Assembly (NCBI GenBank): GCA_002269645.1 | Contig: NIVC01000753.1 | Coordinates: 366,979-430,978 of the forward strand | DNA from: Macrostomum lignano | Lineage: Eukaryota | Direction of reading: 5' to 3' | DNA: 64,000 bases | Shown: piece after piece, positions 41,300 through 64,000 of the stretch | Layout of the letters: the number at the start of each line of letters is the position of its first letter | How positions within the stretch are numbered: position 1 is the stretch's first letter | Program-made: the position numbers and the translations under genes | Notes under the pieces: model-generated | Told to the model about the DNA's origin: nothing | Seen by the model: only the letters and a program-made list of their open reading frames with translations | Database searches by the model: none

Positions 41300-43852
41300 A
41301 CAAGTTCGGCGATGCCATATCGGTCTGTCCAGAGCTCGCCCATCGTTAAAGCCATCGGGTTCGCGATCTCAAACAAATTATATAATTTAAAATCGACGGG
41401 TTTAATTGAATTGTAGCAGTCAGCAAAACTGCGACAAATGACTGCATCCATACTGTGTGTAAAATCTGTAATGCCACTAAATACACTTAGTAGTGCCGTC
41501 TCGCACGTGCAGAAGGACAAATATTCGAAGGCATGTTTGCATGTCATTTTCTTTATGTAACTTTCAGAAGTGCTTTTGGTAAAAGTTGAATAGCAGTATG
41601 GGTTGAATTTAAGCCTTTCTCTACCAATGTCCAGATCAGGGGTCGGCAAACTCCGGCCTGCGGGCCACATGCTGCCAACGAATACTCTTTATCGTGCCCT
41701 CTGGTCCGTTGAAGTTTTTCAATTGCAATCCGGCCCGCCCAAGGTTTGTGTCTTTTTTAGCTCTCTTCTCAGTTCTCTCTCCCCCCTTCTCTCTTTTCTA
41801 TCCTCTCCTCTTTTCTCTCATCTCCTCTTATCTTCTCTTTTATCGCATCTCTCATATCTCATTCGGCCCGTAGCAAGGATCTAGATTATTTATCTGCCCA
41901 TTGAGGTACAAAAGTTTGCCAACGCCTGATATAAATTGATAGTCAAAATTGCTGGGTTCAAATAATTTAAGATTAATGTGCGAAAAAGTGCCTAAAGCTT
42001 GCTTAGAACGCAGCTATTAGCAGCATGGAAAAGTGGATGACCACGGGATGTTCGGGACCAGTCGGGAGCAAAAGTTTTCGTGTCAGAGGTCTTTTTTTAA
42101 TTAAAGATTTTACTTTTTCAGGCAGCTTACAGCCATCTAAGTTTTTGGTAGGGTTGAAAGTTCCAAGTATTTCAGAAGTAAAAATGGGTAAAAAGCTGTT
42201 AAAAACTGCTCCGCAATCTGTGGTTCACTGTGTCTTCTTCCAACTTGTCTCGAGATCCCGGCCGCAAAAATCTTATCACATCCCGTCTCGTATCGACCGC
42301 TACAGCAAAGCCTATCTAAATATGATAGCGTTTTGGGATAATAACCAATTTTGGAAAAATCAATGACTTTTTATCAAATCGCTTTCTGGTCAATGTGTGG
42401 TTTAGCTAAAAAATTCTGTGACGGAACTCTTAGATCAAGAATTCAAGGACTAGTTAAGTTTCGTTTATATAGGACGATCCATATAATTTGTAGAGGCTGG
42501 AATTTCCAAGTGGTTAAGTAGTTCTTGGCGTATACTATAGACATGGAAAAAATAAAATATAATATAATGTAAACCATGCATTATGCATACACTGTATTGA
42601 TAGTAGAGCTACCAAAGGTCTTCCTGTTGCATGCTGTACCAGGCGACTAGGAGTGTTATTAATAAGAAAAATCTGACATAGTTGCAACAGGAAGTCCATA
42701 GTCGCCTGGTGTCAGGTGCCGACGACGTCCAGGTGACGACTGAATGCTTGAGAGACTAGCTGAGGATGTCCAGCAGTTGAGGCTTGCCCACTGTCGGAGC
42801 TTGTTCAGCGAAACTCAAGAAATTTGCAACATGGTCCATAATGGCAACAAAAGTCTGGACTTTCAACAATGGCCATCTGTTGAAAGTCCAGAAGCTCCGC
42901 CTGGGTGAAGGCCAGTGACAAACGAAGTCAGAGCTGATGAAGACACTTGTCGTCGAATTGCCGATGAAATTTGGAGGCTTGGCAAGGCTGCACTGAGGCG
43001 CAGTGCTGATTGGCGCACAGGGGTGTACTGAATACACTGGCGCTTTTGAGAAAAACATCCGACCTTCTGGCAGACTCGTCGAATATCTCGACGGTCCGGA
43101 GGGCTGGCGACTTGATTCTTGTTTGAGAAGGTGCGCAACAAAAAGTTGGCCCGTGTTCTTAAATTTTGGCTTGGCTTGGTGTTCCTACTGTTAACTGATT
43201 GGGGACAAAATCATGCACTTCCAGTGATAAAATTACACTTCGACGAGTTTCTGTGGCCGGGCTTACGTAAAATTAAATAATCAGTCTTTAATAAAATTTG
43301 CACGTTTTTGTGCGGGTCCCGCGTCCTCTCGTAATGTTAGCAATCCATCTGGAAATCCATACAGTTGTCTAAATTGCAAACTCTTGCCAGCTGTAAAATT
43401 CAAGTTAAATTCAGGGACTTACTGTACTCGTACAATCCTCTGTTGAGCTGTCCGTTAGTACAGTGTTGCTAGAAAATTAAAAATCCCAACAGACAGAATC
43501 AAGAATGGAATGCACAGCAGGGTCTCGTCGCAATGGCATTCATTCCGTCCAGGCTGTACGCCTGCTCTCGTGAACTCTCTTTCCCTGTATTCGAGAGGGC
43601 GGAGAGAGGAGAGGAGAGAGGAACTGGAGTGACATTGTACAGTCCGGAGTGGAAGCGGAGTATTGTTTGCCGTTGCCAATGACAACGGCAGTCTGAGCTG
43701 AGCACGCAGACTCTATTCCACTCTATTTCTCTCTGACAAGCTGTGCCTTGCCAGTTTAGGGGAACTGCTAAGACTGTAAAGCAGATCAGAGGAGACTCAG
43801 CATCGGAGCTGCTAGTTGACATTAACTATTGGTCTTCATCGTTCAGGAGGAC

Positions 43853-44431
43853 ATGAGCGGAACCGTGCACCCGGTTGGTGTCAGCAAGACGGACGGCGCC
43901 AATCCGTCTGCAGCTCAGCCTGGGTACCCGCCAAGCTACCCGACTGCCTCCACAGCTCAGCCTGGATACCCGCCAAGCTACCCGACTGCCTCCACAGCTC
44001 AGCCTGGATACCCGCCAAGCTACCCGACTGCCTCCACAGCTCAGCCTGGGTACCCGACTAGCTACCCTGCTCAGCAGCAGCATCAGCAACCGCCGCCGCC
44101 GCCTGCCTACCCAGCCGCTGGCGGCTACCAAGGCCAGCCCGCTCAGCATCATTTGGTAGTGATGCAGCAGCAGCCAGTGGTTGTGAACGCCACAATTCCG
44201 CGATTCAACCAGTCGCCGGTGTGGATGGTCTGCCCAAACTGTCACAACAATGTGCAGACCACTGTCTATTATAAGATCGGCGGCTACACCTGGCTGATTG
44301 CCGCTATTCTGTTCTTCGTCGGCCTGTCGCTCGGCTGCTGTCTGATCCCGTTCTGCGTGAACTCGTGCAAAGACGTTGAGCACATCTGTCCGAGCTGCAA
44401 CCGAATGGTTGGCCGATTCCACCGTCTGTAA
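43853..44431 (+). CDS. LITAF-domain protein 3 (192 aa from ATG 43853), intronless CDS
   Basis: PGYPPSY repeats; PVWMVCPNC...CKDVEHICPSC. Confidence 0.93.
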   Translation: MSGTVHPVGVSKTDGANPSAAQPGYPPSYPTASTAQPGYPPSYPTASTAQPGYPPSYPTASTAQPGYPTSYPAQQQHQQPPPPPAYPAAGGYQGQPAQHHLVVMQQQPVVVNATIPRFNQSPVWMVCPNCHNNVQTTVYYKIGGYTWLIAAILFFVGLSLGCCLIPFCVNSCKDVEHICPSCNRMVGRFHRL

Positions 44432-48394: not shown

Positions 48395-49292
48395 ACTGCA
48401 TTCTGAACTGCACCATGAACTGCACCCTAAACTGCACCCTGAGCTGCACCCTGAACTGCACCCTGAACTGCACCCTGAACTGCACCCTGAACTGCACCCT
48501 GAGCTGCACCCTGAACTGCACCCTGAACTGCACCCTGAACTGCACCCTGAACTGCACCCTGAACTCTACACTGAACTGCACCCTGAACTCTACACGGAAC
48601 TGCACCCTGAACTCTACACTGAACTGCACCCTGAACTGCACCCTGAGCTGCACCCTGAACTGCACCCTGAACTGCACCCTGAACTGCACCCTGAACTGCA
48701 CCCTGAACTCTACACTGAACTGCACCCTGAACTCTACACGGAACTGCACCCTGAACTCTACACTGAACTGCACCCTGAACTGCACCCTGAACTGCACCCT
48801 GAACTGCACCCTGAACTGCACCCTGAACTGCACCCTGAACTGCACCCTGAGCTGCACCCTGAACTGCACCCTGAACTGCACCCTGAACTGCACCCTGAAC
48901 TGCACCCTGAACTCTACACTGAACTGCACCCTGAACTCTACACGGAACTGCACCCTGAACTCTACACTGAACTGCACCCTGAACTGCACCCTGAACTGCA
49001 CCCTGAACTGCACCCTGAACTCTACACTGAACTGCACCCTGAACTCTACACTGAACTGCACCCTGAACTGCACCCTGAACTCTACACTGAACTGCACCCT
49101 GAACTCTACACTGAACTGCACCCTGAACTCTACACTGAACTGCACCCTGAACTCTACACTGAACTGCACCCTGAACTCTACACTGAACTGCACCCTGAAC
49201 TCTACACTGAACTGCACCCTGAACTGCACCCTGAACTCTACACTGAACTGCACCCTGAACTGCACCCTGAACTCTACACTGAACTGCACCCT
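48395..49292. repeat. 12-nt minisatellite (GAACTGCACCCT; variant GAACTCTACACT) ending exactly at the Polinton left end
   Basis: Tandem copies visible; last unit GAACTGCACCCT abuts AGTAGT at 49293. Confidence 0.97.
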
Positions 49293-49412
49293 AGTAGTAT
49301 ACGTTTTTTTGACACAAAGCCGATTTCCTTATGGCGAAATACATAGTAAGTACAGGCCCAAAAAAATGGCAGAGTCTGAAATTTGCCGTGCACGCAAACT
49401 AGCTTTTACGCA
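49293..49412 (+). repeat. Left terminal inverted repeat
   Basis: 49304-49384 is the reverse complement of 63919-64000 with one substitution and one homopolymer length difference; weaker similarity continues to ~49412. Confidence 0.95.
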
Positions 49413-49630: not shown

Positions 49631-50194
49631 TTACAAATATTGAGGCAGCACTCGTAAAACAAAATTGCGTAATTTAGCATACAAGTATCGAAACGAACCA
49701 GTGCGAATTATATTCCGTTTAAAAACGCTTCGAATAAAACACTCTAGGTTTCCTCTGGTAGTCAACTTATGAAAAATATAAAAAATTACCCAAAATCCAC
49801 AACTTCCACTCTGTGGGTCTTGGATAGCAAAGCGACTATAACACCAATTTTTCGAATTTCCACATTCTTTTCCTAGCCATTTTGCTATTCTTGGCAATGG
49901 TACTAGACCAAGAGAATCAAAATATTCACCAAGTCGTTTGCTACCGCGACCTGCTCGATGACCATAAACCCAAACGCATACCCAATGTTTTCCGGGCAGG
50001 TTGGAGACGTCAGTATTAACGATAAAAAAATAGTCTTTACCGTCTAAAGGTAAGCGTCTAAGTCCACCAACAAAGTTTTGAGGAAAAACACCAAGAAATA
50101 CAACATTTAAAAAATGTGCGCACAATTTCGATACAACATTGCGAAGGAAGCGATCTGTTACACCACGATCTAGGATAGAATCAATTACTTCCAT
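49631..50194 (-). CDS. Adenain-like cysteine maturation protease (187 aa)
   Basis: FLGVFP, IVNTD...GKHWV, EYFDSLG, IQ...SGSCG: His/Asp/Cys triad intact. Confidence 0.92.
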   Translation of the reverse strand: MEVIDSILDRGVTDRFLRNVVSKLCAHFLNVVFLGVFPQNFVGGLRRLPLDGKDYFFIVNTDVSNLPGKHWVCVWVYGHRAGRGSKRLGEYFDSLGLVPLPRIAKWLGKECGNSKNWCYSRFAIQDPQSGSCGFWVIFYIFHKLTTRGNLECFIRSVFKRNIIRTGSFRYLYAKLRNFVLRVLPQYL

Positions 50195-51506
50195 ACTGTG
50201 CCAGGAACAATGTCGCGAAGTTCAGTCAGTTGCAGTTGCTTGTCAAATATACCTCCAAATATGACGTTGTACACGGTACTAGTTGCAGCATTGAAGCGTA
50301 ACTCTAGTTTTACATTTCCTTCCTTATACAGTTGCACTCCCCGTCCGACACCAGGTTCACTTCCAAGACTGAATGCAAAAATTGAGTAACCATTGGCGTA
50401 ATCCAGCATATTAAATCCAATATCTCGTCCCTGTAGATAGATTCCAAGCTGTTGTAGCAAAAAATTATACTCTGTCACACAATCATCTCCAAAGTTTGTC
50501 TGCAGCGGACGCGATGGTACCGAGTCTCCATTCACAAACACACCAATGCTGCTCACATTTGCATGCTCAAAGTTGAACGGATTTGTGTCCATGCTTCCAT
50601 TGAATGCCTTGTTGCTTACGATTGCCATCAATAAAAGCCGTGGTACCCCACTAGGAAACAAATTTTCATGCGTATGGCTAGACGATCCTCGGGTATAGTA
50701 AACGTACCAAGGCTTAGACTTCGGTGCGGATATAATGCATTGTGACTTTTAAGTCCATGAGCATGTGCACTGATAACACTCGGCGAGGGTTGAACAAACC
50801 GCAATCGTAGTTCTGCACGCAAAAACTTGATCTCATAGTCTTTTAAAACCGCACCAGCTTCTAATGTTGACCCGCTCAGGACAAATTTACTTTTTGCCGG
50901 TATGAGCTTGATCCGTAGTGGTGTCTTTGATAGTAGATACCGAGGCTGACGAAACAAATCCAAGAATAACGGCCCCGATACAGTGCACCGCCTATTGTTA
51001 GCAATGAGCGCCTGCCTCTTTGTTCGTCCATCGTTTTCACTTGTTGCATTCATTTTACCAGCTGTATCCTTGTAAAACCCCCACGGCAGTAAACCAGCCT
51101 TCTGAGCTGTATGTCCATATTCCAGTAATGTAAGAAGCATAGCCTTGTATGGATACATAAAACTACCACCTTCAACTACAGTATCGCCAATAGTAAATTG
51201 AACGTCCTCAAACAATGTTCCAATAACCAAATTATTCAAACAAACAAAATTTTTCGTTGCATCTATAGGTTCACCTTCACTATCACTAACGCTGAAGCAT
51301 ACCGTGAGCACAGTTTCTTGTAGATCCAAATACAAATCGCCTGCAGGCACAACTTCAAATTCGATAGGTGATCCTTTTGTAATACCATGTTGCGGTTGAA
51401 TGTTAGTATATCGATTATCCAAAACACTAAACTGAACAGGACTTTGATCAAATAGCGACAATTCACTTTTAAGAGCAGCAATATCAGGTCCAAGCAAATG
51501 GTTCAT
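50185..51506 (-). CDS. Major capsid protein (double jelly-roll, Polinton type), ~440 aa if a 1-nt frameshift near 50691 is corrected
   Basis: KSELSLF...SPIEFEV...YLDL..T.L...NNL..TLFEDV...YPYKA.L..LL.YG in ORF 51506-50628; continues as NLFPSGVPRL...NPFNFEH...P..PL...GYSIFAFSL...GNVKLELRF in ORF 50661-50185. Confidence 0.9.
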
Positions 51507-51507
51507 G

Positions 51508-51966
51508 CTACTTTTCAAACAGACTAAAAAGTTTCTTGCTTGCAGTAGCAGTTCGACGTTTTCCTATACCACCGGTCTTCTTGCGTTTTCTTTTGTTCAC
51601 GCGTCCCTTTCCACACTGTCTTGTTCGTCGTTTCTTTTGCCGTTTCTTCTTTCCTAAGCTTATAGCCACTCCACTGGTTCTTTTCCTTCGCTTTGGTCTC
51701 GAAACTGCAGTTGTATTAAACATCTCTTCGCTCGATTCTGTGTCCAAGTGACGCTTCCGACCCATACCAATTTTTGCTGTCGCACTTTTCAAATACTCCA
51801 GACCACGATCCAAGAAATCTTTCTTTGCGTTGCGTAGTACAGGATACACCAATCTGTCCGCCAAATTTGACAAAAAACCGTAACCTTCGTAAACAGGAAT
51901 GCCATATCCACCTCCACCTTCAGCAGATCTATTCGGACCAGAATAAAAAGCAAAAATAGGATCCAT
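51508..51966 (-). CDS. Basic (Lys/Arg-rich) putative core/DNA-packaging protein (152 aa from ATG 51966)
   Basis: GYGIPVYEGYGFLSNL motif followed by an extremely K/R-rich tail; abuts the MCP start. Confidence 0.7.
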   Translation of the reverse strand: MDPIFAFYSGPNRSAEGGGGYGIPVYEGYGFLSNLADRLVYPVLRNAKKDFLDRGLEYLKSATAKIGMGRKRHLDTESSEEMFNTTAVSRPKRRKRTSGVAISLGKKKRQKKRRTRQCGKGRVNKRKRKKTGGIGKRRTATASKKLFSLFEK

Positions 51967-52007
51967 TTCAACAGTCTTCTCTTCGTCATGCAATCCCAAT
52001 TCATGTG

Positions 52008-53168
52008 TTACTTATACACTTTAGAAAATAGTTTAGCAGTCTTTGCGTCAAGATCATTTTCGTTTAACCACTGACTTCTTGAGATTGGCATACCTTTCCA
52101 TTTTACTAGATACAGACGACTTCCATTTTTCGCTCGATCAGTTTCAATAACTTTTTCAATTTCATTAGGTGTTTCATCTGTCTCGTTTACCAACATTAGT
52201 TCCGCTTGGTTAAACCTTCCTTTCAGCACTTCAAATCCATCTTCAGGGTCCACTAATTCGTACATTGGCGGGTCTGTCAAGTGTACACGATGAATGCGAT
52301 ATTTTGAATTACTCCAAGTCGTAGTGTATCCTTTTTCAAATGTTCCTCGACGTCGTGTAATTCTAACCCAATCACCAACTTTAAATTTATTCTCATTCTT
52401 TTTAGTGTACGACTTCGCAAACATTTTGTCCCACAAAATTCCTTGTAAATGCGGGTCTGTCTCTACCCGTTTTGGTGTTTCTCCACTCAAGGATCGATGA
52501 GGACTAGAGTTGAAATTATCTTCCAATTGCGGTAAAATGTCAAACCATCGAGGTAAATTTTTTGCTCGAAAGTATCGTAATAGACGTTCCTTTAACGAGC
52601 GGATAAATCGTTCAGCCATGCTTGCCTTGTAATTGCTTTGGCTAACAAAAAATCGAACTCCTTCCTGTTTCAGCATTTGACGTGTAGCTCTTCCGAGAAA
52701 CTCCATACCAGCATCACCTTGTAAATAAACAGGCTTAAAACCACTTCGAAAAATCTCTAGTAATACTTGACTAACTTCTGAAGGCTTCTTTGTACGCAAT
52801 GGTCTTAGTCGTACAACTCTAGTAAAACAGTCGATAAGAACAAGTATGTAACGATAACCTCGATTTTCCGTCTTGTATTGAGGTAAATCTGCCAAATCGA
52901 TTTGAAACTGAAACTTTGCAACTGGTGGCACACTAATTTTTGGAGTTGGAAAGTTTCGTCGTGTTTTTCGAAATAAATGATGCTCATTTGTTGATCGCAC
53001 CCAATTATCAACTTCGCGCTTTGCAACTTTGTTCGTAATCTGTGGAAACTTTTTACGTACTTCACGAACAAGTATAGTCTTGTTACCACTAAATGAAGTA
53101 GGCCTGTTCAAGTTAAAAAAAGCATCCGTCAAAAATTCTTCAATTTCCTTACGCACTCGCTTCATCAT
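52008..53168 (-). CDS. Retroviral-type (rve) DDE integrase with C-terminal chromodomain (386 aa), intact
   Basis: FQIDLADL, YILVLIDCFTR, LQGDAGMEF, ASMAERFIRSLK; C-terminal IEKVI...YLVKWKG......W. Confidence 0.95.
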   Translation of the reverse strand: MMKRVRKEIEEFLTDAFFNLNRPTSFSGNKTILVREVRKKFPQITNKVAKREVDNWVRSTNEHHLFRKTRRNFPTPKISVPPVAKFQFQIDLADLPQYKTENRGYRYILVLIDCFTRVVRLRPLRTKKPSEVSQVLLEIFRSGFKPVYLQGDAGMEFLGRATRQMLKQEGVRFFVSQSNYKASMAERFIRSLKERLLRYFRAKNLPRWFDILPQLEDNFNSSPHRSLSGETPKRVETDPHLQGILWDKMFAKSYTKKNENKFKVGDWVRITRRRGTFEKGYTTTWSNSKYRIHRVHLTDPPMYELVDPEDGFEVLKGRFNQAELMLVNETDETPNEIEKVIETDRAKNGSRLYLVKWKGMPISRSQWLNENDLDAKTAKLFSKVYK

Positions 53169-53337
53169 CAGTTAGATTGATGCTAGTCGTTTGACAGTTG
53201 CAACAAAAGAACGAAGCCTCGATCGAATCTCCGTCAGTATCCTCGTTGTGCTCCTTTCCCAGAAACGGCACACATTCAGATTTTATGCAAAAAAACTCAC
53301 AGAGACGAATCAAAAGTTTTTGGAAGATAGATGACAT
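53149..53337 (-). CDS. Small Cys-rich hypothetical protein (62 aa) overlapping the integrase start
   Basis: ATG-initiated, fits the tightly packed co-oriented gene layout; no family recognised. Confidence 0.4.
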   Translation of the reverse strand: MSSIFQKLLIRLCEFFCIKSECVPFLGKEHNEDTDGDSIEASFFCCNCQTTSINLTDDEASA

Positions 53338-53449
53338 GGTTTGTCTTATTAAACTATATATTTTTCATAAACAAAAAATTAACCTTTTTAAAAAGCTTAT
53401 AGTGCTCGAATCAATTTTGTTAAAACGTAATCTGTAATTTTAAAACAAC

Positions 53450-54139
53450 TTAATTCAGTGTTTGATAATTTTCAAACAGACTAAGATCCTCCTTTGCAAC
53501 AGTTTTTGGAGCAGACATTAGCTCGTTTCGTACATGACGCCCGATTTGGTTTGCTGCGATTCCACGTTTTCGAAGAAAGTCTAAAAATGTTTTTAGTCCA
53601 CTAGGCGGTTGAGTCTCGTGTCGCTTAAGCGGTCTGTCTCGAACAACATATTCCATGAGATCTTGTATCTCGGCATCAGTCAAATTAGCCAGCATTGGTT
53701 CTGCATTCTTGTCCATGTCCGAAAATAGGTTTTGAGCGAGAGCTTCGAAACGTGGTAAAAAAACTTTAGGAATTTCCCTTGATTCGCTGGCATATGAACT
53801 TCTTACAGTAGTCCCTTTGCGAACAAGTGACAGATTGTCCTCGTCTCCAGTGCGATAGACTTTGCGCAATTTTAAAAGTTTGTCTTCCAATCTGCTTCGT
53901 TTCAATTGAGCTGTGTAATTTGGCTCCTTTTCCATTTCCTTGTCCAAGTTATCCATTTGGTCTCTCATTTCCACCATATTTTTTGCCAGAGCATCTTGCG
54001 GTGCGTCTAAAACTTCAGTTTTTCGAGGTGTCTCAGCAGTTGGTGACGATCCTTGCTCTGCACCTTGACATGCAGATTGATACACAGATTCAGGTACTAG
54101 ATACATTCGTTGAAAACTACTACTCTCGTTAGTTCGCAT
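53450..54139 (-). CDS. Hypothetical Polinton protein (229 aa)
   Basis: ATG-initiated ORF in the gene array; N-terminal RMYLVPE resembles a recurring Polinton motif (from recollection). Confidence 0.7.
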   Translation of the reverse strand: MRTNESSSFQRMYLVPESVYQSACQGAEQGSSPTAETPRKTEVLDAPQDALAKNMVEMRDQMDNLDKEMEKEPNYTAQLKRSRLEDKLLKLRKVYRTGDEDNLSLVRKGTTVRSSYASESREIPKVFLPRFEALAQNLFSDMDKNAEPMLANLTDAEIQDLMEYVVRDRPLKRHETQPPSGLKTFLDFLRKRGIAANQIGRHVRNELMSAPKTVAKEDLSLFENYQTLN

Positions 54140-54149
54140 TATATTCCTA

Positions 54150-54578
54150 CTACTTTCGTTGAATTGATCGTATTAAATTCGCTGCTCCCGCGGCGGTACC
54201 AACTACTCCAGACGTTATCCCAAGCGCAGTGCTTATAGCAGGTAGAGCGGCAATAATTGGAGCCAAAAAAGGTAAAAATCCTCCGTGTTGGACAAGTATT
54301 TTCCTTTTTGCAGTAATTGGAGTCTTCTGTTCCAAAAGCTGGCGTATATATCTGCGATGCTTCTCAAGTCGTCTTTTGTTACAGTTACTAATTTTAATAC
54401 GTCCACTAATAATATTAAACAGAAAGTCTACTAGACATCGTATCTCCGACTCTGAAAGTGTTTGTAAAAAACTTTTTCTCTGCTTTGGATGCTTTAGCCG
54501 ATAAACAATTTGTAGTAAAAAAGCACACTGACACAATGAGCGAGCATTTTGTTTTCCTTTTTCTGTTAGTTCGCTCAT
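54150..54578 (-). CDS. Small basic Polinton core-type protein with QHGGFLP motif (142 aa)
   Basis: Basic helical N-terminus, KILVQHGGFLPFLAPII, hydrophobic C-terminal segment. Confidence 0.75.
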   Translation of the reverse strand: MSELTEKGKQNARSLCQCAFLLQIVYRLKHPKQRKSFLQTLSESEIRCLVDFLFNIISGRIKISNCNKRRLEKHRRYIRQLLEQKTPITAKRKILVQHGGFLPFLAPIIAALPAISTALGITSGVVGTAAGAANLIRSIQRK

Positions 54579-54634
54579 TCTTACAAAACAAATTCACAAA
54601 ATTTTCTATTACACAATTAATCTTTGCTTATAAA

Positions 54635-55624
54635 TTAGTCCGACCTATGTTTAAAATGCAGTACGACAACAACGTGTGCTCCCGGATCAAAATTAAACGG
54701 TTTTCCGCGCTGGTCCGATAGTCGAATCGAAATCTCGTGAATTTGTTGTCGATTTGTTTTCAAGTAGTAGGGTGTTTGCAATGCACTGCTATCGCGTATA
54801 AGTTCTCCGTTTTTCTTTTGTTGGAGTTCCACAACTCGAAGCAACGGTACTGATGTACTTCCCACTGCTTGATACTCGATTATATCTGTGTAACAGTACA
54901 TGTAAACCGTTTTACTAGGCATCGGAGAAGGTAGCACAGCATCCAAGTAGGTTTTGTTAATGCGCCAAACACGATTTCTCAACCAATATTGGTGTACTTT
55001 GATGTACACTTCTCCTTCCGTTTTTCGAAGATAGTCTCCATGCGAAACAAGTCGTATAGCTTCACCAGGCGATAGAACACAATAAAAAACATAATAGTTC
55101 TCAGGTACTAGCGCTAGAGTATTGTCGAGACTTTTTATCAAATCCAAGTATGAACCATCCGGTGGTTGTACACTACCAGCGGCAGGTTTTGATAATTTTT
55201 CCGAGACAAGTCCAGAAAGTTTCTTCCAAGAGTCAAATTTGAAAGCGTCCATAAATGTAACTGGTAGTTCTAATCCAATAGTTTTTTCGCCTGAATTTCG
55301 TAAAAGCCAGGCAAATTTTTCATCTGTACCAGACGGTTGCCAGGAAACGTAAGCATCCAAGTCTGCCTCTGCCCAAACACGACCCCAATAGTTTTTCTTT
55401 AATCGTATTATTGAGTCAATGTCCGCAAAATATGGAACTTCAAATCGACGCTCACGATGAGCATTTGGCGTCGTAATTGCTCCATGGCACAGTAATTCAA
55501 CTAGTGCAACCTCGAAGAATCCGTTCAATAAATTTATTGGTTCAGTTAGTCGCACTCGAAATTCATTAGGCGAGTTGGTTTCGTAACTGATATCGTTTGA
55601 CGGCAAAAAAACGTAAAAACTCAT
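54635..55624 (-). CDS. Minor capsid protein / penton (329 aa from ATG 55624)
   Basis: MSFYVFLPSN...N....F.V.L..PI.L...FEVALVEL; YCYTDII....VG....PLLRVV; I..I.I.L.D..G....F. Confidence 0.88.
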   Translation of the reverse strand: MSFYVFLPSNDISYETNSPNEFRVRLTEPINLLNGFFEVALVELLCHGAITTPNAHRERRFEVPYFADIDSIIRLKKNYWGRVWAEADLDAYVSWQPSGTDEKFAWLLRNSGEKTIGLELPVTFMDAFKFDSWKKLSGLVSEKLSKPAAGSVQPPDGSYLDLIKSLDNTLALVPENYYVFYCVLSPGEAIRLVSHGDYLRKTEGEVYIKVHQYWLRNRVWRINKTYLDAVLPSPMPSKTVYMYCYTDIIEYQAVGSTSVPLLRVVELQQKKNGELIRDSSALQTPYYLKTNRQQIHEISIRLSDQRGKPFNFDPGAHVVVVLHFKHRSD

Positions 55625-55681
55625 TTTGAAATAAAACACAAACTAATATTGACAACAGTTTATAATTTGCTTATAATAATA

Positions 55682-56371
55682 TTACACAAACTTTGCATCA
55701 CATTCACGAGTATAGACAACTTGTTCATCACCAGAAAATATTCCTGTTCTCAATCGTAAAAAATCTGGTGTCACTTGCCGCAGGTCAATGAATAAATATG
55801 AAAAAGGTTTGTTATTTGTTGCGTCTTCATACACATTCACTAGAAACCTACTATTACGCGGATACATTTGTCGACCGAGATGTTCAACTGTGGTTCGATC
55901 GCGCACACTACGAGTTAGACAAATATAACTAGCTGATAAACTTCGCATGCGTGCTTCTGGATCAGACTTGTTAAAAAGACCTTGACAAAGGTACAGACAA
56001 GTCAAAGGGATATGATGCGCATGCTTTGTAAACATACTAGTAAATTCTGGCAACTTAGCAATCTCGCTTTGCAAGTCGTCAACAACAACCAAATCGTGTG
56101 GTAAAAAACGATTAATCATCTGTGGTGTGAATTCGGGTACAAAAACAATAGGGTCAAGACCGCTTTTTTGCCAGCATGTTCTAATTCGTTGTTGATCGTC
56201 TGGTTTCAAACTTGATCCATGGCACCAAACAAGACGGCACGGTTTTTTATCAAATAATTCTTTTCGTTCAGTCAACAAACGCAACGTCCATTCAGTTTTA
56301 CCCGAGTTTGAAGGTCCAGCAATAATAAATGTAGAATCGTGAGCTAGTTGCATATTGTATGGCTGCTGCAT
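55682..56371 (-). CDS. A32/FtsK-like genome packaging ATPase (~229 aa)
   Basis: Walker A IAGPSNSGKT, Walker B VVVDD, HH, SLSASYI, PFSYLFIDL...LRTGIF. Confidence 0.93.
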   Translation of the reverse strand: MQQPYNMQLAHDSTFIIAGPSNSGKTEWTLRLLTERKELFDKKPCRLVWCHGSSLKPDDQQRIRTCWQKSGLDPIVFVPEFTPQMINRFLPHDLVVVDDLQSEIAKLPEFTSMFTKHAHHIPLTCLYLCQGLFNKSDPEARMRSLSASYICLTRSVRDRTTVEHLGRQMYPRNSRFLVNVYEDATNNKPFSYLFIDLRQVTPDFLRLRTGIFSGDEQVVYTRECDAKFV

Positions 56372-56373
56372 TT

Positions 56374-56817
56374 TCAAGCACCAAAGCGTTGCTTAACTTG
56401 CATAACCTTGGTAACCAACTTCGCAGCTAGTTTTTCTTTCCAACCAGTAGACGGATCGTGGGCAATCTCTCGTGCACCAGATTCTAATAGCTTATCAGCT
56501 TTTAACCTCTCTTGCACGTCAGAATTTTTATCATAGGCCACGTCGTGAAGCATGCACAAATTGTCAAGCCGATTAATTCCTCGTTGTCCTTTTGCTAGCC
56601 TAGCTTGCAGTTGCGTACCTGGACCACAAAACTGATATCCGCCGGGTAAATGTGCTTCAAATGGTAAATGATTAATTAACCAATTTACGACACCATAACC
56701 TTGTTGCTTTTTATTAATCTTTCTAATAGATTTCTTCTTTTTACGAATGCTCTTCTTTTTCTTTTTAAAACCTCGATCTTTCGCTGGAGACATTTTTACA
56801 ACATATATTTTAGGCAT
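56374..56817 (-). CDS. Parvovirus-VP1u-like phospholipase A2 domain protein with basic N-terminus (147 aa)
   Basis: HLPGGYQFCGPGT (Ca-binding-loop-like), NRLDNLCMLHDVAY (catalytic HD), ADKLL. Confidence 0.88.
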   Translation of the reverse strand: MPKIYVVKMSPAKDRGFKKKKKSIRKKKKSIRKINKKQQGYGVVNWLINHLPFEAHLPGGYQFCGPGTQLQARLAKGQRGINRLDNLCMLHDVAYDKNSDVQERLKADKLLESGAREIAHDPSTGWKEKLAAKLVTKVMQVKQRFGA

Positions 56818-56908
56818 AAATTTTTAAAATTGCTTATAGTATTTACAAAGCTCTCGCATAGTGCACCAATCACCAAAGAAAAAAATCAGTTTATTATTAT
56901 TATTATAC

Positions 56909-57391
56909 TTATTGGCCAGTGCTGCCAAAGCCGCCAAAGCCGCGCCGCTTGGTCGGCGGCTCAATCATCCGAATCGAATTGTCTGCTTCAGTCACATAGA
57001 CTGAAGCAAGCACGGCCTGCTCCAGAACCAGTTGTGCAATACTGAGCCCGGCATAGTACTCAAAGTCTTCCGGACTGTAATTAAACAAGACTATACAGAT
57101 TTCACCAGTATAGTCGGGGTCGATTACGCCACCGCCAACAAATAAGCTGTGCAGAGCCATGCTGGAACGTCCCGCTATCCTGCCATAGGTACCAGGCGGT
57201 AAGCGAATTTTGAGTCCGGTTCGCACACTCCGGGACTCGTAGGCCGGAATGGTACCATCGACGCCAGCGCAAAGATCATACCCGATCGACCCGACAGTTT
57301 TTCGGGTCGGAATCGTTGCCGAATCGTATAGACGTTCAACTAAAAGCTTACGATCAGTTAGTTGTTGTTGCTGCTGCTGCTCGGGATTCAT
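56909..57391 (-). CDS. dut: Trimeric dUTPase (160 aa from ATG 57391)
   Basis: All five motifs recognisable: SIGYDL, GRIAGRSS, GGVIDPDYTGEI, IAQLV, RGFGGFGSTG. Confidence 0.95.
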   Translation of the reverse strand: MNPEQQQQQQLTDRKLLVERLYDSATIPTRKTVGSIGYDLCAGVDGTIPAYESRSVRTGLKIRLPPGTYGRIAGRSSMALHSLFVGGGVIDPDYTGEICIVLFNYSPEDFEYYAGLSIAQLVLEQAVLASVYVTEADNSIRMIEPPTKRRGFGGFGSTGQ

Positions 57392-57683
57392 GTCGATTCT
57401 TGTAGCTGAAAGTTTAAAAAAAAGTTTTTTTTCTTGAAACATGAACGATAGCACTACATTTACGTCTACTACAAACACAAGCTTAGTCTTGAGAATCTAA
57501 CTATAAAAAATATACTTTTTCAAATAATTAAACACAAAAAAGTGCTAAAATTATAATTTAAACGAATGCCGGTATCATTTATTTATTGTAAATAATGATC
57601 AATGAAAAAATTAATGATGGGTTACAGTCTTCTATAGCATGCTATTACTTTGTACAACAAAAGAGATCAGAGCATATTGTTAA

Positions 57684-58014
57684 TTAATTAGCCAAGTGCC
57701 AGTGTCCAAAGGGTAGCGAATTAATTGAACTTGTCCAGGATCGCTTCGTATCGAAGAAGCTTAGTGCAAGTTTTCTTTGTTGCATCAAAAAAAACTTTCT
57801 GTTTTCGAGAACGAATGGACTGTATGCGCGAAAACACAAGTTGTCGCTTGTGTAAGACTCTTAAATAGTCTTGATGCTTTAAACTGCTCTGTGCGGCTTT
57901 AGAAGCAGTACTGCTCCAGCTTTGCGACCGATTGAGACTGGAACTTTAAACGATTGCTGCTTAACCAGACCGGACCGGACTGGACCGGACCGGACTGGAC
58001 CGGACTCCCCGCGC

Positions 58015-58046
<32 letters not shown>

Positions 58047-58760
58047 ACCACCACCACCGCCGCCACCACCACCACTGCCGCCGCCCGCCCCCACACCACC
58101 GTGGGACGTATTTGTTGACAGTGTGCTTGCATGGCTTTTGCGATAAACGCAGAGCATCAAGTCTAGCTGCTCGATTGCTCTATATTGCCAATTACTACCT
58201 CGAGATTGAAAATTGTCAATTTTTATTAACAACTGATTAATAACGCGTGCGAACCAGTCATTGTAGGCCTCGGGAGATAACAGCATGTCACTGTTTGTAA
58301 TCGTCTCATCAAATGATATTGTCGCAATGTTGGTATTAAAATAGACCGAAATGATCTCTTCGCTGCTCGAGCCATCGTTGTCGTCTGCTGCTGTTTTCGG
58401 TCGAAATAGTGTCACTTTCAAGTGAAAGCAGACTCTTATTAATAAACTGGGTGAGCCAATTTTTTCCAATATTTTAAATATTGGTTCTCTTAAAGACGCA
58501 ATCAACTCGCCAGGAAGTAACTCGCCAGAGCTGTTGCCTTGTTGTTCAAGAGTGGGAGTAAATTCGACAAAATTTACCCGACCACGATGAGCTGACTCGC
58601 GCAAAGCGATGGACCACCCATCTGGTGGGTTTTCGATCAGGTTTTGCAGCGATCCGGTCAGTAATCGTTGCGGTGAAAAACAAGCACCATGCGAGTGAGC
58701 ATGCAGCTCGGCTTGATTACTGAACTTTTTTCTGCAGATTTGGCATTGTGCACGCGGCAT
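57684..58760 (-). pseudogene. Internally deleted protein-primed DNA polymerase B: C2H2 finger + N-terminal segment fused out of frame to the last ~70 codons
   Basis: CQICRKKF....ELHAH; IDNFQSRGSNWQYRAIEQLDL (GSGW-type motif). After a junction near 57900-57915, other frames read SKAAQSSLKHQDYLRVL...IQSIRS and KLALSFFDTKR....NSLPFGHW*, the typical Polinton pPolB C-terminus. No exonuclease or polymerase motifs A-C are present. Confidence 0.82.
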
Positions 58761-58983
58761 TGTGTGCACCTAGCTCGACAACGAGCGTATCGAGCATAAT
58801 ATTAATAGATGATCCGGTTTGTCATTTGCGGCTGTAAGAAAAATGATGATTTGGTTAGTTATAGGTATAGCTGACACGTTTACTATTAGAGAAAACAATT
58901 GGTAAATAAATAAAAAAAGACAAAATGTTTGTAAAAGAATGCATCGCAACTGCGATTTGACAGCAATTGTTTACTTGTTAAGT

Positions 58984-59541
58984 TTAGTTATTAACAGAGA
59001 TTAAAAAATCCTTGACATGGTTAAGAATATTATTCAATTCATGAGTGTTTTGAACGCCCATAATAACAAACTTTTTCGAAAAAAATATGTTACAAAAAAG
59101 CCTTGGTTTTGATGCTGATCTAACAGAAACTGCTTGTGGGAAATTTTCTGCATCGTATCCAACCAGATAATTCGAATAGTAGCCTGCATATCTTTTTAGA
59201 CTAGAGAAACCGAATTTTGGCCAAAGATGACCAATAAAGCCGACATAGGTACTGCTCTGAATTTTTACTGAATCAAAATCTACACAATTAATAGTGTCGT
59301 TGATAAATCGTAAAACTGAGACTATCTGAGAATTTGATTTACAGCCATATATAGTTAGTTTTCCTGCTGGATAAAGTTGGATTTTAGCATTTGAATAAAT
59401 TGTCTTTAGCATTGTTGGTCGGCTTAGGAATAGTTTGCAAAACCGGTTTCTGGTCTGTAGCTTCTGTTTGGTCTGCTTTAAATCAAATTTTTCAAACGGG
59501 TGCAGCTTCAGACTCGCAGTAACTATTAATAGGACAAGTCG
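58984..59541 (-). CDS. TATA-binding protein (TBP)-like protein; 185-codon open frame after a splice acceptor, first in-frame ATG at 59412
   Basis: Manual alignment to the TBP core: IVTASL..FDLK; AKIQLYPAGKLTIYGCKS (cf. TALIFSSGKMVCTGAKS); DSVKIQS (cf. DFKIQN); YDAENFP...KPRLFCNIFFSKKFVIMG (cf. YEPELFP...KPRIVLLIFVSGKVVLTG). Confidence 0.82.
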   Translation of the reverse strand, partial: RLVLLIVTASLKLHPFEKFDLKQTKQKLQTRNRFCKLFLSRPTMLKTIYSNAKIQLYPAGKLTIYGCKSNSQIVSVLRFINDTINCVDFDSVKIQSSTYVGFIGHLWPKFGFSSLKRYAGYYSNYLVGYDAENFPQAVSVRSASKPRLFCNIFFSKKFVIMGVQNTHELNNILNHVKDFLISVNN

Positions 59542-59751
59542 CTAAAACGGAAAATAAATAATAAGAAAAGTTAAACATGACTATACTATCGTAAATTCTA
59601 ATATTAAATTACAAAACCTGGTTAGCGTACAAGGAGTAGCAAAAAATGTTTTGAGCTTTTCCCTAAAAAATAATATTTCCCTAGCCAAAAATTTGATAAA
59701 TATAGTGGAATAAGTTAGTTAAAACTTGGATAAAATTAGTCAAAAATTTTG

Positions 59752-60950
59752 TTACTCATCATCAGAGCTGCTGTACGAGTCGTCCGATGAAGACACGCTA
59801 GCTGTAGTAGCGTCCGCAGCAGCACGCTTTAAAAATGCTGTCTCCTTGGACGCTACCCTGGTTCCAGAGGCAGGTGTACTCACCAAGATCTTTGCTGGTG
59901 GAGCCTCCACCCAGTCTGTGCCATCTGCACCAGCTTCGGCAGAATTGTTTTGCTGTTTTGCACCGCTGCGTTTTCGAACTTGCTTTTTAGGCGGCGGTTC
60001 AATAGAGGCTGGCGCTGCATTCGATGTAGTCGACTTCTTCGATACGGTGGTGGTAGACCGACGCTTTGCAGGTGACTTGGCAGGTGTCACCTGGCTTGAA
60101 TTCTGCAGGCTTTGTTCATTTGCTTCTTCTTGCTCACAGGTAGATGTTGGGGACGGACTCCTGCTTCTAATTGCTGACTTGGTCGCGGGTAGGTGTGCAA
60201 GCACTCCCTTGAACATGTCGAGGCGCTGCAACATGTTGTCGGAAGATTCTATGAGTGTCAGAGAGCGCACAGCGAATGTAATGCGCCAGACGAGGCAGCC
60301 TTTTGGACAATACAAGCTCGTTGCTTGCACTGTCATTTGGTAGGTACCGCTGACACCTTTGAAATCGGAAATGGACACCTCCTTCCCGTGTGGATGATCG
60401 TTGCTGATCCTGATTGTGGCACAAGGGTAAGCAGGCTTTATAGCCAGCCATTGTTGAGGCACAAACTCGAGGACGTCGTTAGCATGCTGATGAGCTGGTT
60501 TTGTTAGTCGTGCCAAGGGTCGAGCATCTTGAATCTCGTTCAACTTGACCGATAGACCTTTTTCGACTTGACTGCAAAACATTATATAAATTATGAATAT
60601 AGTTTCCTAAAATTAATTGTATAAATTTAATATGGTGCTCACCGGAGAGAGTGGAAGAGTTCCTTATCGCAGCTGTCTGGATGAAATTGGACACTTACTG
60701 CGTCGCGAGAGTCGTGTCTGCAAGACGGATGATCGAGCTCTGGCCTTTCTGCGATTCCACGAAAAAGCTCCATTGGAGCCTTGGTTTGCAATATAATTGG
60801 GTACCATTTTGTACACTCGATTGATGGTTTCCACGCAATAGATCGAAACTGGCAGGACGAACCAGTCGTGGTTGTAGACTGCTCTCCAACGTAAAAAATC
60901 GGACTCGAGTCGGAGCGTACAATTGACTCCGTCTTGATGCAAGCTGCCAT
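59752..60950 (-). CDS. Spliced gene, join(60950-60643, 60571-59752), 375 aa; probable T7 gp2.5/NCLDV-type OB-fold ssDNA-binding protein with disordered acidic tail
   Basis: 71-nt AT-rich intron CG/GTGAGC...TTTTGCAG/T joins two ORFs in frame (308+820 nt = 376 codons). Motifs YPIILQT..M..FRGI and GTYQMTVQATSLY....WRITFAVRSLTLIE, plus the tail SSSDDSYSSSDDE. The SSB call is inference. Confidence 0.72.
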
Positions 60951-61028
60951 GTCTTACAAGCAATTGAATATAGTATTTCTTTTGCTGTAATGATTGAGCT
61001 CATGAAAAATTGACCATTTCGGGTCTTG

Positions 61029-61036
61029 TATTTATA
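61029..61036 (-). promoter_or_regulatory. Candidate TATA box (TATAAATA) ~80 nt upstream of the SSB-like ATG
   Basis: Consensus TATA sequence at a plausible spacing; the region is AT-rich, so chance occurrence is possible. Confidence 0.4.
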
Positions 61037-61639
61037 GCAAGCTTTGCATGCTGTTTGTGAACTAGTAAACAAATTTAATTGTTGCGTGCTGATTAAGACA
61101 TTGTTGCGTGCCAAAGGTGGCATAAGTTTCTAGGGTGGGTTGCATGATTAGGTCTAATTTTACGCAAATGTAGGTTGATATTTTATACAATAAAATTAAT
61201 GAATCTTAGGCACACTAGTTATAAATTTGCAAGAGTAACACGATGGCAAGCGTTTAATAAGAAGACTGCTGGTTGCTGCTTCATTAGATTGGTTTTGTTC
61301 TCAAGTAGAATGTAATTAAAATATTTTGCGACTTGAAAAATTAGCAATCTTGGATTTTAGAGTAAAAATAAGCTGCACGCGGTGCTATGAAATTAATTTA
61401 TTGAAAGTTTTGCTTGCATGTTGGAATTTTTTAGCTCGCACGGTGACAAGAGATTGCTTGAGTAACCTATATATAGAGTGTTACTTTTCAAACAGAAAAG
61501 GTATAGTTGTAACTCAGCTTTTGCAGTCCTATATTGAGCAGAAGCTATATAGAGTTACACTATCATGCTGCGACGCGCAGCTTGTTGGGACTATAATGAC
61601 TGCCGCTGCTATAACCGCATGCAGTCAGTGCAGTTGACA

Positions 61640-62345
61640 CACAAATGCTGTTTGGACTAAGCTAAATTACTGTGTTGAGACAGTTAAGCTGGACCACGGC
61701 TAAATCACTATTGATACGGTTAATTGCTACTAGACCCATGGCTAAATCACTGTACGTTGAGACGGTTAAGCTGGACCACGACTAAATCGCTGTACGTTGA
61801 GACGGTGGTTAAGCTGGACCATGGTTATAAAACTGGACGGGTGGTTAAGCTGGACGACTACAGCTAAAATTACTGTTGAGTCAGTTATGCTAGACCACAG
61901 CAGCCAAATCACAGTTGAGGTAAAGCTGACCATAGCTAATTCTCACTGTTGAGACGGGTGCTGCTGCTTGGCTCACAGCTAAATAACTGGACAGTTAAGC
62001 TAATCGGACTACAGCTAAATCCCTGTTGAGACAGTTGCCTGGACCACAGCTAAAATCACTGTTGAGGCAGTTAAGTCTGGACAACAGCTAAAATTACTGT
62101 TGAGACAGTTAAGCCTTGACTATAGCTAAATCATCGTTGAGGTAGTTAAGCCTGGACTATAGCTAAATCACTGTTGATGCAGTTTTAAGCTAGACCACAG
62201 CTAAATCATACTGCTGAGGCAAAAAAGCCGGACCACGGCTAAAAACTGTTGAGGCAAAAGCTGGACCACAGCTAAATCATACTGTTGAGGCAAAAGCTGG
62301 ACCACAGCTAAATCATACTGTTGAGGCAAAAGCCAGACCATGGCT
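61640..62345. repeat. Degenerate ~35-40-nt tandem repeats inside the Polinton (CTGGACCACAGCTAAATCACTGTTGAGACAGTTAAG-like)
   Basis: About 18 imperfect copies visible. Confidence 0.85.
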
Positions 62346-63839
62346 AAAGAAACGTATGAAAAAAAATTATTTGCATGGATTAATAATTTTTGTTTAATGA
62401 TGACTGTACAAGATATTGACTTTATATTGAATTAAATAATTTCAATAAATGGCGAATAAAATTGAAAGAATTTTTTAGAATAATGAATTTATAGAGATTA
62501 TATTATTGATTACAGACTTGTTTGATATATACTAAAAGAGCAATTACTTGGACACATTGCTGGCAAAATTTTATGAAGAGTTAGAAAAAATGTCTTTTAA
62601 GATAGTCCCAATATTCAAATACTTGAGTTGTATTACAGGTCTTTGGCTAATTCTACTTGGTAGAAGCCTGTGCTCATTTGAGAGACTTTTACAGACTTGA
62701 TGTCCTTCTGTACAATAATTGCGCGAGTTTAGCAGCGCGTTGAACTTGGGTAGAAATAGCAATTGATGATGATGGTTTTCAGTTGCTGTCGTTGGTTTGG
62801 TACTTGTAGGCTACTGCAAGTTTGCTTTGTTGGGTCATTGTAGCTGGTTGTGATGGTGGTGGTGGTGCATACTGCAGTTGGTCAGTTGTCGTGGGTTCGA
62901 TTGCTGCCTAATTGATGAATAACATCAGTTCTTGTGTAAATGCGATCTAGCTCAGTTGTCTGTCTCTCGACATGAATCGAGGTTACTCTGGCGAGAGATG
63001 TAAATATGATGCTCTTGCAGCAGAATTGGATGTGGTGGTGTCGTGGCAAATGCGTTTGCACTGATCTGGAGGTGGCCGCGTGAAGAAACCATTCTTGAAT
63101 GCTATAATAATGGATAAGATGAGGGAAATTTGGTATAGGTGCATGTATACAATGTATATAGAAACTGAACTAAAGAGAATCAGTCTAAACAGAAACCGAA
63201 CTAAGCAGACAATCAATCTAGAAATTCTGACTAGCAGAGTATTAGTCTAAACAGAACCGAACTAGCAGAAATCAATCTAGAGACTGAACAACAGAGGATC
63301 GGTCTAAACAGAAACCGAACTAACAATCAATCTAGAAACTAAACTATAGCGAACAGTCAATCTAAAAAGAAAAACTGAACTAGAGTAGGTGATTATCTTA
63401 CCTTGTTTAACATAGCGCTCGGCCAATTCTGCTGACGTGATCGCTTCATTTCACTTAAGATGTAAGTATAGTTGAACAAGTAGTATAATGTAAACTTGGT
63501 TTAAGTTATTTAATATTTTCTGTGTCAGGTGTTCGTATATATATATATAGTATAAAGAAGAAGCATGTTGACGCAGTTGTTGACATAGTATCTGTAAACC
63601 ATCTGCTCAAGTTGGTGCAAAAATTCTATAGGCACTCAAGAATAGATCATTTACTATCTTTCTTCAAAAGGGTGATAATATTCACAAGTTTTCAATATTT
63701 CAAAAACACTTGAAATGTGTGAATAGCTTTGGAGTAAATTTGTCTTGAATGGAATCCTTTGAAGTGTGTTTGTGTCACCATTGCTAGAATCGGTTACTTG
63801 TATTTTGGACAGGTGGGATATGCAATTCGTCTGAATAAT

Positions 63840-64000
63840 CACGTTGCGTAAAAGATATTTAGCGTGCACTTGGAATTTCAGACTGCGTGCACATGGAATT
63901 TCAGACTGCGTGCACATGAAATTTCGGACTCTGCCATTTTTTTGGGCCTGTACTTACTATGTATTTCGCCATAAGGAAATCGGCTTTGTGTCAAAAAAAA
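63840..64000 (-). repeat. Right terminal inverted repeat (runs off the window), with extra tandem copies of a ~24-nt GTGCACGCAGTCTGAAATT unit
   Basis: Reverse complement of 49304-49412. Confidence 0.95.

Follow-up and report, generated by a model that had tools for sequence, protein, structure and literature searches.

A TATA-binding protein fold encoded in Polintons of Macrostomum lignano, and a variant TATA box ahead of virion genes as its candidate target

A Polinton in the genome of the flatworm Macrostomum lignano encodes a two-lobed TATA-binding protein (TBP) fold at 58984-59541(-) of the window, that is, of the whole 64,000-nt stretch of DNA analysed here. We consider it probable, if far from certain, that this protein is the late-gene switch of the element, acting on host RNA polymerase II (Pol II) through TATAAGC boxes, with the early operon expressed from a canonical box and resolved by trans-splicing; binding, partner, timing and TBP start are the parts of this reading that we infer. 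All positions refer to the window, and all genes, exons, splice sites and boxes given for its element lie on the (-) strand.

The stop-to-stop frame at 58984-59541 comprises 185 codons and forms one coding exon with both lobes. The first-pass annotation, made from the sequence alone, had seen in it a TBP homolog extending over both repeats, and profile searches, modelling and fold comparison all bear this out. The frame has two stretches that match Pfam TBP (PF00352), with E 2.2e-7 and 31 bits where the cut-off is 22.9; among five sister-lineage frames, two pass the cut-off, two fall just below it and one is without a match. A scan of the PDB with a profile built from eight family members gave 35 TBP entries at E<1e-4 among the 37 listed, and most of these TBP matches span frame positions 16-176. 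The AlphaFold model of the 185-codon frame (mean pLDDT 94.9) has the shape of the TBP saddle, and its top Foldseek matches are TBPs (E 1.8e-9, TM 0.73). In VIA-align the model superposes on yeast TBP with Z 16.4 and an rmsd of 2.8 A over 168 residues, compared to only Z 8.7 for the next unrelated fold. The BFVD matches of the protein include the ASFV B263R homologue. The presence of a two-lobed TBP fold in the Polinton is therefore regarded as confirmed.

The viral surroundings of the frame, also described in the first-pass annotation, are Polinton genes within inverted repeats. The element is 14.7 kb in size, and repeat comparison places the left terminal inverted repeat, with its AGTAGT end, at 49293-49396 and the right one, which is cut off by the contig end, at 63907-64000 (93 nt, 96% complementary). 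Upstream of the TBP-like exon there is an SSB-like gene, and downstream follows the N-terminal remnant of a putative protein-primed PolB (57879-58760); approximately 3.2 kb of this gene is missing from the window's copy and present in other copies. The remaining genes are dUTPase (56909-57442), a PLA2-like gene (56374-56817), packaging ATPase (55682-56371), a putative minor capsid gene (54635-55624), a pX-like gene (54150-54578), a 229-aa gene (53450-54139), integrase (52008-53168), a basic 152-aa gene (51508-51966), the major capsid gene (50185-51506) and protease (49631-50194). The dUTPase, PLA2-like, pX-like and integrase genes were named by Pfam, where rve + chromo (integrase) and pX score above the cut-off and the adenoviral-type protease below it. 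The ATPase, in which a P-loop is seen in the sequence, and the capsid gene are without a profile match and presumably carry the right names on the basis of motifs and gene order; the gene at 54635-55624 we take to be the minor capsid gene from its position and a motif. With its PolB deletion and a capsid frame broken near 50628, the window's copy is one of many near-identical deletion derivatives. The stretches 40835-44431(+) and 48396-49292 to the left of the element hold two host frames that we take to be LITAF-like from a CxxC pattern, and a tandem array of 9-nt units into which the element is inserted. Degenerate tandem repeats separate the early promoter from the right inverted repeat, and the corresponding stretch of lineage B contains a coiled-coil frame of 197 aa (61650-62350 and L031:1781-2374).

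The TBP-like gene belongs to a family that has been maintained by selection. Searching the worm's own genome gave 83 matches among 97 candidates, including 22 identical full frames (the window's among them), four at 99% and, in addition, broken and divergent copies. The divergent copies make up five more lineages, B, B2, C, D and E (39-46% identity), next to lineage A of the window. The common gene order is spliced SSB-like gene, TBP-like gene, deoxynucleoside kinase (dNK), PolB and then the virion block; the kinase is absent from lineage A, and the TBP-like gene stands between the SSB-like gene and PolB in all six lineages. The dN/dS comparison of element copies suggested in the first-pass annotation gave 0.12-0.19 in six pairs (within A, within B, B versus B2) with at least six synonymous changes and 0.50 in one pair. 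Comparisons within A against the divergent subtype yielded 0.15 and 0.18, those within B 0.12 and those of B with B2 0.17; the value of 0.50 belongs to one B2 pair. Pairs with few changes ranged from 0.23 to 0.61. Between lineages dS is saturated, yet the 39-46% identity and 27 invariant columns remain. The family is under purifying selection. As a separate observation, in lineage E (L040:2622-4001(-), L042, L063) the TBP-like frame reads without a stop into the deoxynucleoside kinase, giving 460 aa with Pfam TBP and dNK, and the kinase still has an acceptor-like site and an ATG of its own.

A Pfam TBP search of the genome, in which 150 of 330 candidates scored, recovered the host TBP and a TRF2-like gene and, beyond these, well over 100 matches. 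Those further matches that were inspected belong to Polinton families G and H, and all four Polinton families sampled in the genome carry a TBP-like gene. Next in score after host TBP and TRF2 are three single-lobe fragments of family-G type (L083-L085), which are likely broken copies. Among 1.84 billion representatives, 137 proteins were found at E<=0.001, of which 4 are close relatives, 49 are near cellular TBP and 54, mostly of 155-200 aa, share a motif of RPxM type. A metagenome scan queried with 25 rows of this last group detected 12 loci with a TBP-like gene, 11 of them with Polinton virion genes. IMG/VR scans with five queries gave no confirmed locus, and a word-indexed protein search with the single TBP-like protein yielded no match, as none of its 36 candidates scored. 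In a 32-row tree, in which the rows were hand-chosen and the branches are long, the window family is a clade (100/100) that joins the RPxM and metagenome Polinton proteins (99/98), families G and H form a clade of their own (97/93) and the cellular rows fall on one side (100/98). Grouping of the window family with host TBP is rejected by the AU test (p=0.0006). A quick 68-row tree puts G and H among the cellular rows and the 32-row tree puts them apart, so the placement may be read as one or as several captures of a TBP, with long-branch attraction possible.

These data bear on the case that the first-pass annotation had set against its own proposal, a recent host TBP retrocopy restricted to one copy of the element. 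A retrocopy or dead passenger would agree with the window's copy being a deletion derivative and with the RNA-like contigs described below carrying another subtype's letters. The frame is, however, only 21% identical to host TBP, the AU test separates the two, and 22 identical copies, six lineages and purifying selection refute such an origin for the family; we assign it practically no probability.

The yeast residue numbers were put on the host TBP sequence by motifs, a placement that we assume to be correct and that was checked against the superposed yeast segment (residues 66-239). The numbers come from Table 1 in the accessible part of PMC12529657 and were transferred via host TBP in the alignment. 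In yeast numbers, lobe 2 keeps F190, P191, F207 and V213, together with both stirrup acids (D130 and E132 of the Polinton protein). Lobe 1 is changed at F99P, L114Q, F116Y, V122T and N69L/Q, and further changes are N159S/T, V161T and L205N. In the numbering of the Polinton protein, the two intercalating phenylalanines of repeat 2 are retained (F134, F153), both asparagines are replaced (L4, S96) and repeat 1 is divergent, all as the first-pass annotation had it; P42 and Y57 occupy the phenylalanine sites of repeat 1, and the canonical set of four is thus incomplete. The listed DNA-face residues are nearly all invariant across the eight family rows, with Q55, Y57, T63, T98 and N151 as fixed new residues and with L/Q and S/T in place of the base-reading N69 and N159 in all eight, which argues that the DNA face was re-tuned and did not decay.

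On the TFIIB side, the acidic stirrup of lobe 2 (D130 and E132) is invariant in 8/8 rows as far as presence of the residues is concerned, and the basic helix of lobe 1 is absent. Viral TBPs lose the lobe-1 basic helix and regulatory surface, and most are without the TFIIB stirrup acids and carry their own TFIIB, according to the text available of PMC7221094. None of the 15 TFIIB-family matches of the genome falls on element contigs. Complex prediction with a host TFIIB exon scored 0.00, an outcome that speaks neither for nor against docking; the TFIIB piece was without its first helices and DNA was absent.

The word TATAAGCA was first noticed in upstream regions and then counted. In five lineages TATAAG occurs 40 times on the coding strand versus 11.8 expected, and 3 times on the opposite strand versus 9.0 expected; TATAAA is not enriched on the coding strand (18 versus 16.1). 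Among non-repeat 8-mers TATAAGCA ranks first (18 versus 1.0 expected), and an unguided ranking has the same word at the top of the non-repeat 6-, 7- and 8-mers. In the window, TATAAG sites are found 21-233 nt ahead of eight of the nine genes from PLA2 through protease. These are TATAAG(CA) 21 nt before the PLA2-like gene (56833-56838), 51 nt before the putative minor capsid gene (55670-55675), 54 nt before the pX-like gene (54627-54632) and 98 nt before the 229-aa gene (54232-54237); TATAAG(CT) 233 nt before integrase (53396-53401) and 158 nt before the major capsid gene (51659-51664); TATAAG(TA) 50 nt before the basic 152-aa gene (52011-52016); and TATAAG(GA) 134 nt before protease (50323-50328), the last of which lies within the capsid coding sequence and may be codon-driven. 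Some TATAAG sites do overlap coding sequence (Y-K codons). The packaging ATPase is without a site of its own in the window's copy, and no TATAAG site precedes the SSB-like, TBP, PolB or dUTPase genes there. In most lineages the box precedes the PLA2, minor capsid, pX, integrase, capsid and protease genes; before TBP or PolB it is found in 0/6 elements, dUTPase has a site in 2/6 and the ATPase has none. Judged from sequence, the eight sites at 50323-56838 are the candidate targets of the Polinton TBP.

A different box stands ahead of the early block. The canonical TATA box TATAAATA at 61029-61036 is located 86 nt before the first gene of this block, a TATAWA box is present there in all lineages, and in lineages C and D it overlaps a TATAAGG. 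The first-pass annotation had proposed 61029-61036 as the site for a binding assay; as this site stands ahead of the very block in which the TBP is encoded, host TBP is its more likely reader, and the TATAAG sites are to be preferred.

One amino acid change can be related to the altered base. According to the available portion of PMC13566119, which summarises Patikoglou 1999, Leu-72 of Arabidopsis does not tolerate C or G in box position 7 without a clash. By the offset of the four phenylalanines, Leu-72 equals yeast L114 and thereby Q55 of the Polinton TBP. All eight family rows have Q in this column; the residue is L in host TBP, as it is in Polinton families G and H. Among YWTAAG sites of the Q lineages A-E, position 7 is C in 39 of 77 (15.4 expected), while in G and H, where Leu is kept, it is A in 14 of 19; the link between Gln and C7 comes from this one clade contrast. 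Family J has a polar residue in the L114 column, yet TATAAATA stands before its virion genes. In metagenome elements of Q type, TTTATGCA is enriched by itself (11 versus 2.3 expected) and the wider box pattern is not (39 versus 37.8). No TBP-less Polinton that could serve as a control was present among seven further loci of the genome. Each Polinton family has its own box word, which tracks its own TBP lineage.

The same structural rule, in the excerpted text of PMC13566119, leaves TATAAGCA compatible with cellular TBP, with position 7 costing a Hoogsteen pair only, so host TBP might read the box. This matters for the two roles between which the first-pass annotation had left the choice, a virus-encoded TBP with altered promoter specificity and a decoy of host TBP/TFIIB. 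As a decoy or repressor, the protein would occupy host TFIIB or host promoters and the TATAAGC boxes would be read by host TBP, in line with that compatibility and with a TFIIB stirrup kept while two of four intercalating phenylalanines changed. We find this unlikely, as the DNA face is fixed at new invariant residues over saturated synonymous distances and the family-specific box words track each family's TBP lineage. Altered promoter specificity fits best with selection, polar swaps and variant box, all of which support it indirectly, and the decoy explains less.

The other families show how variable the setting of such genes can be. In families G and H (L091-L110, L133-L136, L143-L146) the TBP-like genes are intronless, start with ATG and overlap the upstream frame; the box word of these families is YWTAAGAA, and they also have a PC4 gene, recognized in L091 by Pfam PF02229. 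Among family G copies, the first lobe is nearly constant and the second varies. Family J (L137-L138) is PolB-less; its inverted repeats of 814 nt enclose approximately 10.4 kb, in which there are integrase, capsid, protease, ATPase and a very degenerate TBP-like gene, besides the TATAAATA boxes mentioned above. In the metagenome Polintons (L112-L119) the TBP-like gene and the virion genes are on opposite strands, and the former overlaps one or two frames, PC4-like by eye and without a Pfam match; TTTATGCA is found ahead of several virion genes.

In the window family the TBP-like exon is preceded by a gene made up of exon 1 (60643-60950), a 71-nt GT-AG intron (60572-60642), the joint of which is seen in three of four runs, and exon 2 (59752-60571), whose product has a basic linker and an acidic tail and is SSB-like, as a lead only. 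The ESM Atlas neighbours of exon 2 are DUF2738/DUF5871 at 0.86-0.90. Exon 2 alone folds poorly (pLDDT 49), its BFVD ssDNA-binding matches are weak, and searches of exon 2 gave no Pfam, PHROG or PDB sequence match. The gene is a candidate single-strand binding protein of T7 gp2.5/DUF2738 type, split by a conserved intron. Motifs PxKxLVS and RVASKD are conserved in its otherwise variable tail. With the TBP-like gene always between the SSB-like gene and PolB in the window family, and with a divergent Giardia TBP that binds ssDNA according to the published text at hand, a role in replication or packaging could be thought of, in which the target of the fold would be single-stranded or terminal DNA instead of promoters, with the SSB-like protein and PolB as partners. 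The conserved TFIIB stirrup, the different gene position in families G, H and J and in metagenome elements, and the TATAAG motif, which it leaves unexplained, make this role very improbable.

The TBP-like frame itself is without ATG until codon 44. The upstream "stop" bounding the frame is the AG of a candidate splice acceptor, a pyrimidine tract with TTTTAG (59542-59547) that adjoins codon 1 in phase 0. All six lineages have such a tract with YAG at this place and in this phase, and two relatives outside these have a trace of the same acceptor. A start at Met44 was rejected: codons 1-43 are as conserved as the rest (18/43 versus 66/141 identical to lineage B) and form strand 1 and helix 1 in the model. 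An ATG 37 nt before the acceptor was rejected as well, being out of frame and absent in three of 29 copies checked, and so was an intron donor at the end of the upstream frame, which has the wrong phase. Stand-alone homologues have their Met 1-4 residues ahead of strand 1.

Four runs from four studies were aligned to 58200-61600 as contigs, which drop rare forms; the kinds of the runs were guessed. Three runs look RNA-like, with the 71-nt intron of the upstream gene removed, and the fourth looks like DNA. The RNA-like contigs agree with a minority subtype (3 of 30 loci) at 25 of its 29 listed variants, and not with the window's subtype. A spliced-leader acceptor, TTACAG (58832-58837), lies 71 nt before the PolB ATG and was recognized from the loose end of one contig: in run X7 this contig ends at 58832 in 23 letters that, compared by eye, equal the 3' end of the M. 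lignano leader, which points to a trans-spliced PolB message. The terminal AUG of the flatworm leader can reportedly serve as a start (Cheng 2006, as cited elsewhere). The leader of M. lignano is printed in the accessible text of PMC8629364, and it ends in ATG. At the TBP acceptor neither leader nor cis joint was seen in any of the four runs (contigs, with rare forms dropped), and the leader at the PolB acceptor was seen in one. Between the upstream gene and the TBP exon there is a coverage dip in runs X6 and X7, from which no conclusion is drawn.

The 5' ends of PolB were compared at L054, L055, L064, L040-L045 and L035. In lineages A and D the PolB ATG is found five codons before the first Cys; at that codon lineages B, B2 and C have an acceptor CAG, and lineage E has an in-frame acceptor a few codons earlier. 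No in-frame upstream Met exists in PolB of B2 and E, and that of B and C is distant and unconserved. Such an exchange of ATG and acceptor fits an AUG supplied by the leader, and the same is likely for the TBP. It is somewhat more likely than not that the AUG ending the host spliced leader provides the first codon of the TBP, possibly side by side with a cis-spliced fusion. In the window's own lineage the leader AUG is not in frame with PolB; at this acceptor it would begin a separate upstream frame of 10 codons (58760-58831(-)), a possible brake on polymerase translation.

Left unexplained by the leader model is a conserved candidate donor in the upstream gene, GTGAG at 59879-59883, which is in phase 0 and would bound a 342-nt intron (59542-59883). 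GT[AG]AG is present at the homologous L|VS site in 6/6 lineages, in phase with the TBP acceptor, versus 0/10 other Val-Ser pairs, against a background in which purine-ending Val codons make up 0.33-0.56 and four of seven other conserved Ser columns switch codon family; GT[G/A]AG is also the host's top donor motif. The TBP exon could accordingly be cis-spliced to the SSB-like gene, producing a fusion of 517 residues (332+185 codons, by arithmetic) that would tie late transcription to replicating single-stranded templates, with the unspliced form as a plain SSB-like protein with an acidic tail. A published source states that flatworm acceptors are often common to cis- and trans-splicing, and the same source that cis-splicing is rare at operon-resolving acceptors. 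The joint is absent in 4/4 runs though the small intron is seen in three, the X7 and X3 contigs continue unbroken across the donor, and conservation of the PxKxLVS peptide could have a reason unrelated to splicing. A search for the longer form found none among 7999 scored, which is weak evidence, and none occurs among the 1.84 billion representatives either. We regard the fusion as a serious possibility to which we give a little less than even weight, and it may coexist with a leader-started TBP.

Our preferred reading, the late-gene switch, builds on the fold, selection, fixed gene place, motif placement, one intron and one leader site described above, and it would proceed as follows. Host TBP would fire the canonical box and yield a single early transcript with SSB-like, TBP, (dNK) and PolB genes, which trans-splicing would cut into TBP, kinase and PolB messages, the leader AUG becoming codon 1 of the TBP. 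Lobe 2 (F134, P135, F153) would read the 5' TATA half of the late box, and lobe 1 would read the AGCA half, with Gln55 in the place of the leucine that C or G in position 7 would collide with. D130 and E132 would dock host TFIIB, as the element is without a TFIIB gene, and loss of the lobe-1 basic helix may allow escape from control of TFIIA/Mot1 type. On TATAAGC the viral TBP would then recruit host TFIIB and RNA polymerase II to the capsid, packaging and integrase genes. In a wider form, animal Polintons would run an early/late programme on host Pol II in which the minimal TBP of each lineage co-evolved with its own TATA variant (here Leu-to-Gln reading C7), the flatworm element taking the start codons of TBP and PolB from the host leader; this we propose tentatively, as somewhat less probable than its contrary.

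Whether Polintons are working viruses, and how elements of 15-20 kb without an RNA polymerase time their capsid genes, are questions for which a one-domain TBP with a matching box before virion genes offers a direct test, in a worm amenable to RNAi and transgenes. If the proposal is true, TBPs that are naturally fixed at a specificity of their own would supply Pol II with the smallest orthogonal modules for promoter recognition and would put the rules of TBP-DNA recognition to a natural check, and the swap of ATG for an acceptor would tie expression of the element, hence its host range, to hosts with an AUG-ending leader. Genes started at an acceptor in this way would be missed or truncated by gene callers.

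In the literature searched, most subscription papers being outside its scope, "TBP" is in print for a related virus only as a figure label, and a term look-up in the available texts of PMC11131425, PMC11161782 and 10.64898/2026.06.19.733378 gave no mention of TBP. The label is found in the Figure 5 legend of Starrett et al. 2021 (PMC8502044), for MELD viruses with an adintovirus-like PolB. It is one legend line on non-animal datasets; family, motif, residue and splicing analyses are absent from the text portion considered, and figures or supplements may say more. Within this literature no paper describes the Polinton TBP as a system; new here are the match of residue to base and the exchange of acceptor for ATG.

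Compared to cellular and archaeal TBPs (PF00352; PDB 7o4i_O, 7egb_P, 1mp9), the Polinton protein has the same full-length two-lobed saddle with the lobe-2 Phe pair, Pro and stirrup acids. It is only about 20% identical to cellular TBP and differs from it in the substitutions F99P, F116Y, L114Q, L205N, V122T and V161T and the loss of both Asn, and in being without the lobe-1 basic helix, an N-terminal extension or an ATG. The TBP-like proteins of NCLDV, as far as the excerpt of PMC7221094 goes, are likewise divergent viral TBPs without the lobe-1 regulatory surface, but these viruses mostly carry their own TFIIB and polymerase, and the Polinton carries neither. KSHV ORF24, in the sections at hand of PMC12529657, is likewise a factor of a nuclear DNA virus that uses host Pol II, with a polar DNA face proposed to read a late-gene variant TATA, and it offers a precedent, by analogy, for recognition of a variant box through a polar TBP face. 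In contrast to the Polinton TBP, a bare core keeping the TFIIB acids, ORF24 is a 752-aa multi-domain protein of a six-subunit complex in which the four Phe are kept and the acids absent. Finally, flatworm spliced-leader operons, in the parts available of PMC8629364 and PMC12582326, likewise have acceptors between close co-oriented genes and a leader ending in AUG; they have been described there for host genes, whereas here the acceptor belongs to an integrated virus-like element and replaces the ATG.
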